Virus record (IMG/VR): IMGVR_UViG_2526164669_000027
DNA length: 48,145 bases
Strand: one strand, 5' to 3'
Origin: a virus
Taxonomy: Duplodnaviria; Heunggongvirae; Uroviricota; Caudoviricetes
Below are positions 42,690-43,471 of this stretch, in pieces. A program made the translations under genes and the position numbers. The notes beneath the pieces are model-generated. The model saw only the letters and a program-made list of their open reading frames with translations. It was not told the origin of the DNA and did not search any database. Each line of letters begins with the position of its first letter. Position 1 is the first letter of the stretch.

Positions 42690-42893
42690 ATGGGAGATAA
42701 GTCAATGGAAGAAAAACAACAAAACATAACACATAAAAAAGTAAGAGTGTTGCTAACCATTGAAAATGGTGAAGTAATTTACTCAAAACATCTGTTGGAT
42801 AATGAATTCGTTGGCTGCATGGATACATTTCTGTGGATGGCAAAAAGAGCTGGCTACACGATTATTCCACCAGCAAAGGAGCAAACATTATGA
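42690..42893 (+). CDS. hypothetical protein (67 aa)
   Basis: Stop overlaps the next start (ATGA). Confidence 0.45.
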   Translation: MGDKSMEEKQQNITHKKVRVLLTIENGEVIYSKHLLDNEFVGCMDTFLWMAKRAGYTIIPPAKEQTL

Positions 42894-43471
42894 ATCATTC
42901 AGAGTTCCGACCAGAAGTTACGCCACATGGCATAAAAATTGGCAATACAACCATTAATTTTGTTGATGCCGTACAGCGACTTAATGATGGTGAATACGAC
43001 AATCCATACTGGCACGGCTTAAGAATCATGCAATGTATTGCTGAAGCCGATGATGCCGGATTCCTGGGAAGATTTTCAGTCGATATGAAGGTTGCTCAAT
43101 GGCGCTGGCTGTATGTGGCAACGTTTATCAGTGAAGAGGAAAACAAGAACGGCACCATTGATATCCCTAACGATAACGGAACTACAGATCGCGCAGTTAT
43201 TTATAAGGGGAAGCATGGTTGCATGAGTATATACCCAGGACCACTTCGCATTGCCCTGCAAAACCATGTCGAATGGGGATTTATTGAAAAATATGGCGAA
43301 GCTGAAGGCATGGGGCGAGTTCTGTTTCTCTATCAAAATATGCTCATCGCAGATCCTGATAATGGTTTCATTGTTTCTGCTATGGGGCGCGAAGGGCTTG
43401 AACTCCTTCTGGATGAAATGATTAACGACCTGAATACTCATGGTATGCCAGAAGCGCCAGTGACACATTAA
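42890..43471 (+). CDS. hypothetical protein (193 aa)
   Basis: MNHSEFRPEVTPHGIKIGNTTINF...; coupled to the upstream ORF. Confidence 0.55.
   Translation: MNHSEFRPEVTPHGIKIGNTTINFVDAVQRLNDGEYDNPYWHGLRIMQCIAEADDAGFLGRFSVDMKVAQWRWLYVATFISEEENKNGTIDIPNDNGTTDRAVIYKGKHGCMSIYPGPLRIALQNHVEWGFIEKYGEAEGMGRVLFLYQNMLIADPDNGFIVSAMGREGLELLLDEMINDLNTHGMPEAPVTH

Follow-up and report, generated by a model that had tools for sequence, protein, structure and literature searches.

The adjacent small and large early-left genes of a phiP27-like prophage are probably a lineage-specific juxtaposition within a mosaic cassette

At positions 42690 to 43471 of a 48,145-nucleotide stretch of viral DNA, the whole of which is referred to here as the window, two short open reading frames (ORFs) follow one another on the plus strand, and the stop codon of the first overlaps the start codon of the second. 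An initial annotation read them as 67-aa and 193-aa genes of the leftward operon and presented them as an unassigned, translationally coupled two-gene module. The locus raises two questions: which genes are encoded here, and do they form a unit, or are they separate genes that happen to lie side by side?

The window is a complete phiP27-like lambdoid prophage in E. coli, inserted in yecE. Positions 41700 to 45400 are 96% identical to Enterobacteria phage phiP27; the similarity ends at about 47140 and is followed by an N-terminally truncated DUF72 (yecE-like) gene, whose place beyond the integrase identifies the insertion site, and by a MAPEG gene. The relevant genes are all on the plus strand. 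A cI-like S24 repressor gene (40895-41626) precedes a DicA-like HTH gene (41730-42146) and a phrog_5451 (L08-like) gene that ends at 42508 and begins at ATG 42143 or TTG 42137, probably the former, which gives an ATGA overlap with the stop codon of the DicA-like gene. After the large gene of the pair come two small membrane ORFs from 43517 onward (35 aa; 62 aa, phrog_1130), the second of which shares an ATGA with the gene for an SPFH/Band-7 lipoprotein (43833-44660), and then a 148-aa DUF5406 ORF and a 121-aa DUF4222 ORF (44626-45346), the excisionase gene (45505-45741), and the integrase gene (45797-47110). The DUF5406 and DUF4222 ORFs overlap by about 90 nt as listed; their true starts are probably further downstream, as the PHROG alignments begin at residues 26 and 42. 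The SPFH lipoprotein, whose gene product is called a "serine protease" in phiP27 and Stx phages, has weak similarity to HflK/HflC and could touch the FtsH/cII-cIII axis. The pair lies between repressor and xis/int in the same orientation as the cI-like repressor, in the equivalent of the lambda "leftward" arm, and its placement in a leftward operon is upheld by this orientation and by the termination of the arm at xis/int.

In phiP27, the two genes likewise stand between L08 and L05, the gene for the SPFH lipoprotein, where they are labeled hypothetical as L07 (P27p07) and L06 (P27p06); the phiP27 small protein is 100% identical to that of the window, and the large protein is 91.7% identical. 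The pair has thus long been known as hypothetical phiP27 genes and is already cataloged as PHROGs. A literature search with the phiP27 gene names, protein accessions, and PHROG identifiers found no paper on it.

The coordinates of the two ORFs and their ATGA overlap are correct as first recorded. The 67-aa ORF (42690 to 42893, plus strand) also exists as read; nonetheless, the gene within it probably has 62 codons and most likely starts at ATG 42705, not at 42690, where the phiP27 L07 call begins. Three observations lead to this start. A GGGAGA ribosome-binding site read from the sequence (42692-42697) stands 7 nt before ATG 42705; many database homologues of the small protein are called at 60 to 62 aa from the equivalent start; and in the longer homologue calls, the N-terminal extensions are unrelated. 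Moreover, with the 67-aa reading, the small gene would share 11 nt with a conserved 37-aa ORF directly upstream. The small gene (42705-42893, plus strand) corresponds to phiP27 L07 and PHROG 340, and its product is predicted to consist of a beta-hairpin and one helix.

The 37-aa ORF (42587-42700, plus strand; MTFLKHKASYKTACLIAQHGDSYLHIANLYLRKAYGR) heads the cassette described below, has its own AGGAGA 7 nt upstream of the start, and carries no annotation in phiP27. By tblastn, it is conserved at 50 to 97% identity and at the same position in lambdoid loci of E. coli, Citrobacter, Klebsiella, Salmonella, and Phytobacter. Its pN/pS ratio of 0.15 to 0.5, at pS values of 0.6 to 0.9 where synonymous divergence is near saturation, points to purifying selection. 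No PHROG or Pfam match was found for it. Thus, the module as originally drawn omits a conserved gene immediately adjacent to it.

The large gene (42890-43471, plus strand; stop codon 43469-43471) corresponds to phiP27 L06 and PHROG 1515. In phiP27, it is called at 212 aa from an upstream GTG, which is position 42833 in the window; since all homologues align from ATG 42890, 193 aa is the better call. Both the small and the large gene evolve under purifying selection, with pairwise dN/dS values mostly of 0.1 to 0.3 at unsaturated dS; the two exceptions, 0.52 and 1.11, both come from comparisons of nearly identical sequences. By this codon-level evidence, the two ORFs are real coding genes.

How tightly are the small and large genes linked? 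At the junction, CATT-ATGA-ATC, the TGA stop of the small ORF and ATG 42890 share 4 nt, and the Shine-Dalgarno sequence of the large gene, AAGGAG (42877-42882, plus strand, read from the sequence), lies within the 3' end of the small gene. A small upstream gene overlapping a larger downstream gene by ATGA is the classic arrangement of a two-component system, and the two genes could in principle be a true module in E. coli phages, of the toxin-antitoxin (TA) type or an effector with its regulator, in which the small protein would neutralize or control the large one and translational coupling would fix their stoichiometry. Nonetheless, overlaps of this kind are generic in the window: five other 4-nt ATGA or GTGA overlaps (14777-80, 32913-16, 37484-87, 42143-46, and 43833-36) and three 1-nt overlaps (9514, 9843, and 38860) were found. 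Furthermore, the Stx phages have a 5-nt spacer between the small-gene stop and the large-gene start in place of the overlap. Given how common such overlaps are across the window, the ATGA is best read as ordinary operon compaction and not as a sign of an obligate two-component system.

Gene order bears more directly on the question. We compared about 35 loci and mapped the cassette by running HMMs of five families on all of them; because each locus was retrieved through the small or the large gene, the frequencies of co-occurrence carry a bias. In four E. coli lineages, the phiP27, Stx2, Stx1, and PhiR49_2 phages, the small gene immediately precedes the large gene; the large proteins of these lineages are 64 to 92% identical and the small proteins 51 to 100%, and both genes occur in at least 100 complete E. 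coli genomes. This persistence of adjacency across four lineages with a protein divergence of 30 to 50% speaks for a two-component reading, and a functional partnership specific to these lineages is conceivable. Elsewhere, the two genes are split or occur singly. They belong to a collinear cassette with the order 37-aa gene, phrog_1737, phrog_340 (the small gene), ParE-like PF24732, phrog_1886, and phrog_1515 (the large gene). The cassette is complete in Citrobacter, Klebsiella, and the E. coli phage CharmingMan, where the ParE-like and phrog_1886 genes separate the small from the large gene, and the E. coli phage phi467 has phrog_1737, small, ParE-like, and large genes in that order. The large gene is present without the small one in Phytobacter and in phage AsXd-1; in Yersinia and Rahnella, it directly follows the ParE-like gene, with no small gene beside it; in Providencia, it adjoins a Rha-type gene, again with no adjacent small gene. 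Conversely, Salmonella prophages (L018/L019 of our locus set) and Fels-1 carry phrog_1737, small, and phrog_1886 genes and lack the large gene. Altogether, one or two genes intervene between small and large in loci L005, L007, L014 to L017, L021, and L023, and the large gene has no small gene adjacent to it in L003, L004, L006, L008, L009, L011, and L020 and in all but one of the satellite types considered below.

Thus, the small and large genes are not jointly inherited across these loci. The proposed two-gene module finds no support in the comparison with related prophages: adjacency is confined to E. coli phages of the phiP27/Stx/PhiR49_2 type, and beyond the E. coli lineages the pair does not travel as a unit. 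Judged by gene order, the pair is a lineage-specific juxtaposition, not an obligate module.

The ParE-like gene of the cassette (72 aa; PF24732, phrog_1525) was found in L003 to L008, L014 to L017, L020, L021, and L023. A phrog_1737 gene invariably comes before it, sometimes with the small PHROG 340 gene in between, and phrog_1737 and the ParE-like gene could be a TA-like pair. In the part of the window scanned for it (40001-48145), the ParE-like gene is absent.

A TA system in a comparable place is documented: in the cryptic prophage CP-933P, paaR2-paaA2-parE2 is a unit of small and larger genes downstream of a cI analogue, within the immunity/left arm (PMC8630535), and it provides a precedent for a module at this position. 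The likeness extends to the relatives of the window cassette that carry the ParE-like gene. The window itself differs from CP-933P in having no ParE-like gene near the pair, in that neither protein matches a PaaA2, ParE, or other TA model, and in that its two genes are not obligately linked. In addition, neither protein matches a recognized toxin superfamily, the model of the small protein has no match to an RHH, HTH, or AbrB-type antitoxin fold, and neither a Phd fold nor a disordered neutralizing tail was identified in it. Against PADLOC-DB v2, no match at E ≤ 1 was obtained for the pair or for its small membrane, SPFH, DUF5406, and DUF4222 neighbors. With either gene alone or separated in so many relatives, we consider a true two-component module in the E. 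coli phages unlikely.

What, then, are the two proteins? Each has a full-length PHROG match: the small protein to PHROG 340 (E 2.6e-24, residues 6 to 66 of the 67-aa reading) and the large protein to PHROG 1515 (E 3.6e-92, residues 1 to 193), the latter profile matching 54 of 54 diverse members of the large family. Both PHROGs are listed as "unknown function," so that assignment to them labels the proteins but does not say what they do. Neither protein gave an exo, bet, gam, kil, or cIII match at E ≤ 0.1 against Pfam and PHROGs or at E ≤ 1 against NCBIfam, and the absence of such motifs reported initially, like that of matches to any other named family, holds across Pfam, NCBIfam, PADLOC, functionally annotated PHROGs, and the PDB. 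Single-sequence and family-profile searches of the PDB gave no match for either protein at E ≤ 10, and fold searches with confident AlphaFold models of both gave no assignment. The description of the pair as unassigned is therefore borne out by profile and fold searches. The pair consists of uncharacterized accessory genes and is not a new system.

Several candidate assignments were considered and rejected or set aside. For the large family, a DUF1980_C match (E 0.0085) was below the cutoff and occurred in 1 of 54 members. The faint precomputed Pfam tags PF17345 and PF27490 of a few homologues were not reproducible. Homologues of the large protein in Klebsiella phages (MF695815, MK416014, MN166823, MK422455, MK433579, and MK416019) are annotated as [quoted passage not shown]; this label has no profile or fold support and looks like a propagated misannotation. 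In the search for similarity to phage anti-repressor domains (Ant, ORF6N, KilAC, and Rha), the small protein gave weak matches to the C-terminal parts of phrog_4792 (E 0.004) and phrog_2379 (E 0.033) and no match in Pfam. A reading of it as a detached anti-repressor C-terminal domain was set aside, as BLASTP against the Ant-like proteins encoded beside large-gene homologues found no similarity. A relationship of the small protein to the N-terminal extension of the large protein or to phrog_1737 was likewise rejected (hhalign probability <1%).

The large-protein family is a small one, with 134 representatives (50% identity level) in a collection of 1.84 billion proteins; nearly all are stand-alone proteins of 190 to 220 aa. 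The window member is acidic (pI 4.8, charge −13), as is the family (median charge −11.5). Conserved positions include a WRW motif, E82, N87-G88-T89, Y105, R120, E128, Y148, G166-R-E-G-L170, and D175, together with a C-terminal P-x-P-V-x-H tail. The family has no HTH signature and no enzyme signature, and an enzyme or DNA-binding regulator role is not likely for either protein. The conserved polar residues, namely, R72, E82, N87, T89, R120, E128, Y148, R167, E168, D175, and the C-terminal His, would also fit an enzyme active site, and this counts against the protein-binding role considered below.

Residues 66 to 185 of the large protein, its core, show remote homology to phrog_1737 (hhalign probability 95%, E 4e-8, 107 aligned columns); the profile-profile homology extends across the whole domain of about 110 residues and takes in nearly all of the phrog_1737 protein. 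The large-family HMM gave weak reciprocal matches to phrog_1737 proteins in several loci, and the sites concerned lie at L007:4760-5122, L014:3661-4008, L031:4625-5008, and L034:4633-5001. It follows from the hhalign result that the large protein consists of an N-terminal extension of about 65 aa and a phrog_1737-like domain. In Klebsiella, Citrobacter, and Salmonella phages, phrog_1737 itself, a protein of about 120 aa listed without a function, is the product of the cassette's first long gene; unlike the large protein, it has no N-terminal extension of about 65 aa, no WRW motif, and no C-terminal P-x-P-V-x-H tail. phrog_1737 and large-family genes are frequently side by side or near each other, and no phrog_1737 gene is present in the scanned region of the window (40001-48145). 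On the basis of these profile comparisons, we propose that phrog_1515 and phrog_1737 form one domain superfamily. Separately, in one 336-aa database protein (P0071), a large-family domain is followed by a C-terminal region similar to phrog_37628, a family that is encoded as a separate gene in Rahnella (L003:6843-7181), two genes downstream of the large gene; P0071 could be a genuine fusion or a frameshift artifact.

The large family is also shared with phage satellites. Its divergent members, from six element types, all lie in integrase-AlpA-...-primase elements (L025 to L029 and L031 to L037). Besides a primase-helicase of the DUF927 or Toprim/D5_N type, these elements have Ash, AntA, or ORF6N genes, and their layout is the published one for E. 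coli and other Gram-negative phage-inducible chromosomal islands (PICIs) (PMC11773190). In their int-alpA-antirepressor/Ash-...-primase order, the elements resemble PICIs such as those of the EcCIMP1 and EcCICFT073 type. They differ from the window, which is a complete lambdoid prophage and no satellite, in that the large gene has other upstream partners and adjoins the primase-helicase gene. In the satellites, the large gene is tightly packed against a preceding gene that encodes an unrelated 59-, 66-, 72-, or 116-aa protein, a phrog_1737-like paralogue, or a second copy of itself; L036 and L037 have two tandem copies. From element to element, these upstream neighbors show no relationship to each other. 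The small family was found in one satellite type only, 2.3 kb from the large gene. As for the neighbors of the pair, DUF4222, which is encoded in the left arm of the window too, recurs in several satellites; for DUF5406, the one recurrence is in L024, a lambdoid locus.

In all six satellite types, the large gene lies 0 to 3 genes upstream of the primase-helicase gene (DUF927 or Toprim/D5_N) and in the same operon, and a beta-clamp-like gene comes after it in two lambdoid loci. These positions would suit a replication-linked accessory factor, for instance a regulator or loader for the primase-helicase or for host replication proteins. In the lambdoid phages, however, the large gene is in the pL arm near xis/int, with the replication genes across the immunity region, and the protein has no similarity to known loaders or initiators; we regard a replication role as improbable.

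The pL-arm accessory genes of lambda (gam, kil, cIII, and ea/orf) and P22 (abc/ea) lie between the repressor and xis/int and are small, packed, and mosaic. The pair shares their position and orientation; it differs from them in showing no sequence, profile, or fold similarity. In Pfam and PHROGs, no recognizable gam, exo, bet, erf, or recT gene was found in the pL arm of the window, which raises the idea that the acidic large protein replaces a missing lambda function, most plausibly as a Gam-like inhibitor of RecBCD or of another nuclease or restriction system, of the DNA-mimic type. The acidity is family-wide, the family occurs in early operons of phages and PICIs alike, and both kinds of element would need protection of their replicating concatemers. 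Nonetheless, next to known DNA mimics the charge is modest (−13 in 193 aa), neither Gam nor any other PDB entry shows sequence or fold similarity, and nothing ties the large family to nucleases. Such a substitution for Gam appears to us rather improbable.

The time of expression also bears on function. One copy of a 21-nt direct repeat, AAGAAWCCAAAGTATCAARAA, is found in the region of the cI start (40906-40926) and the other shortly beyond the cI stop codon (41645-41665); the two copies are candidate operators. The second copy and a promoter-like TTGCCA-17-TACCAT (41670-41698) make up a candidate oL/pL (41645-41698, plus strand), identified by consensus matches only, and a 15-nt inverted repeat is present at 41681-41695/41711-41725. 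The operator-like repeat and the promoter-like site fit a repressor-controlled pL. A consensus scan of the plus strand found no terminator-like site between 41700 and 45900, i.e., before int. The pair could instead consist of lysogen-expressed morons, transcribed by read-through from cI as rexAB is in lambda and serving in superinfection exclusion or abortive-infection defense: it is oriented as cI, no terminator-like site separates cI from it, and its neighbors, small membrane proteins and an SPFH lipoprotein, are moron-like. This alternative is at odds with the putative repressor-controlled pL between cI and the arm, with the lack of PADLOC matches, and with the presence of the family in alpA-activated satellite operons, which belong to the induction phase; we give it little weight.

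Our preferred reading, which we hold to be somewhat more probable than its converse, is that these are small, separate early-left accessory genes, each of which acts alone as a protein-binding modulator. Its two parts differ in strength. That the genes are independent accessory genes and not a module is the structural and evolutionary part, and we think it quite probable. The protein-binding mechanism, which draws on where the genes lie, on charge, and on the lack of any other signature, is put forward tentatively. According to this reading, the 37-aa, 62-aa, and 193-aa genes would be a tightly packed early-left (pL-arm) run, the remainder of a variable collinear cassette that occurs in enterobacterial lambdoid phages and whose genes would each have been gained or lost on their own; in the E. 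coli phiP27/Stx lineages, the absence of the middle cassette genes leaves the 62-aa and 193-aa genes side by side. The small and large proteins would be made early from the leftward promoter, after induction or infection, and each alone would modulate a host protein, or a phage or satellite co-resident in the cell, much as anti-defense or anti-repressor-like factors do. The large protein is envisaged as an acidic globular alpha/beta protein without a detectable relative of known structure, whose family occupies the alpA-driven early operon of PICI-type satellites as well.

A bolder proposal, which we consider possible but doubtful, is that phrog_1515/phrog_1737 represents a previously unrecognized fold and an early-operon effector of lambdoid phages and PICI satellites, often present as tandem paralogues. 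It could be, for example, a new anti-defense factor or a manipulator of helper or rival phages, and the same early program could include the 37-aa and 62-aa genes as additional effectors, each acting independently.

Altogether, the new points are the corrected anatomy of the locus (a 37-aa gene and a start that gives 62 aa), the demonstration that the two genes do not form a unit, the domain homology to phrog_1737, and the sharing of the large family between phages and satellites. A vague "two-gene module" is replaced by three conserved small genes in a mosaic cassette with independent gain and loss. The early-left arms of temperate phages, including the related Shiga-toxin phages, are a repeated source of host-takeover, anti-defense, and lysogeny-tuning functions. 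If the large family has a defined target, it would constitute a new class in the early-effector repertoire of phages and satellites, and several hundred genes now called hypothetical in prophages of E. coli, Klebsiella, Citrobacter, Yersinia, and Salmonella would thereby be annotated.
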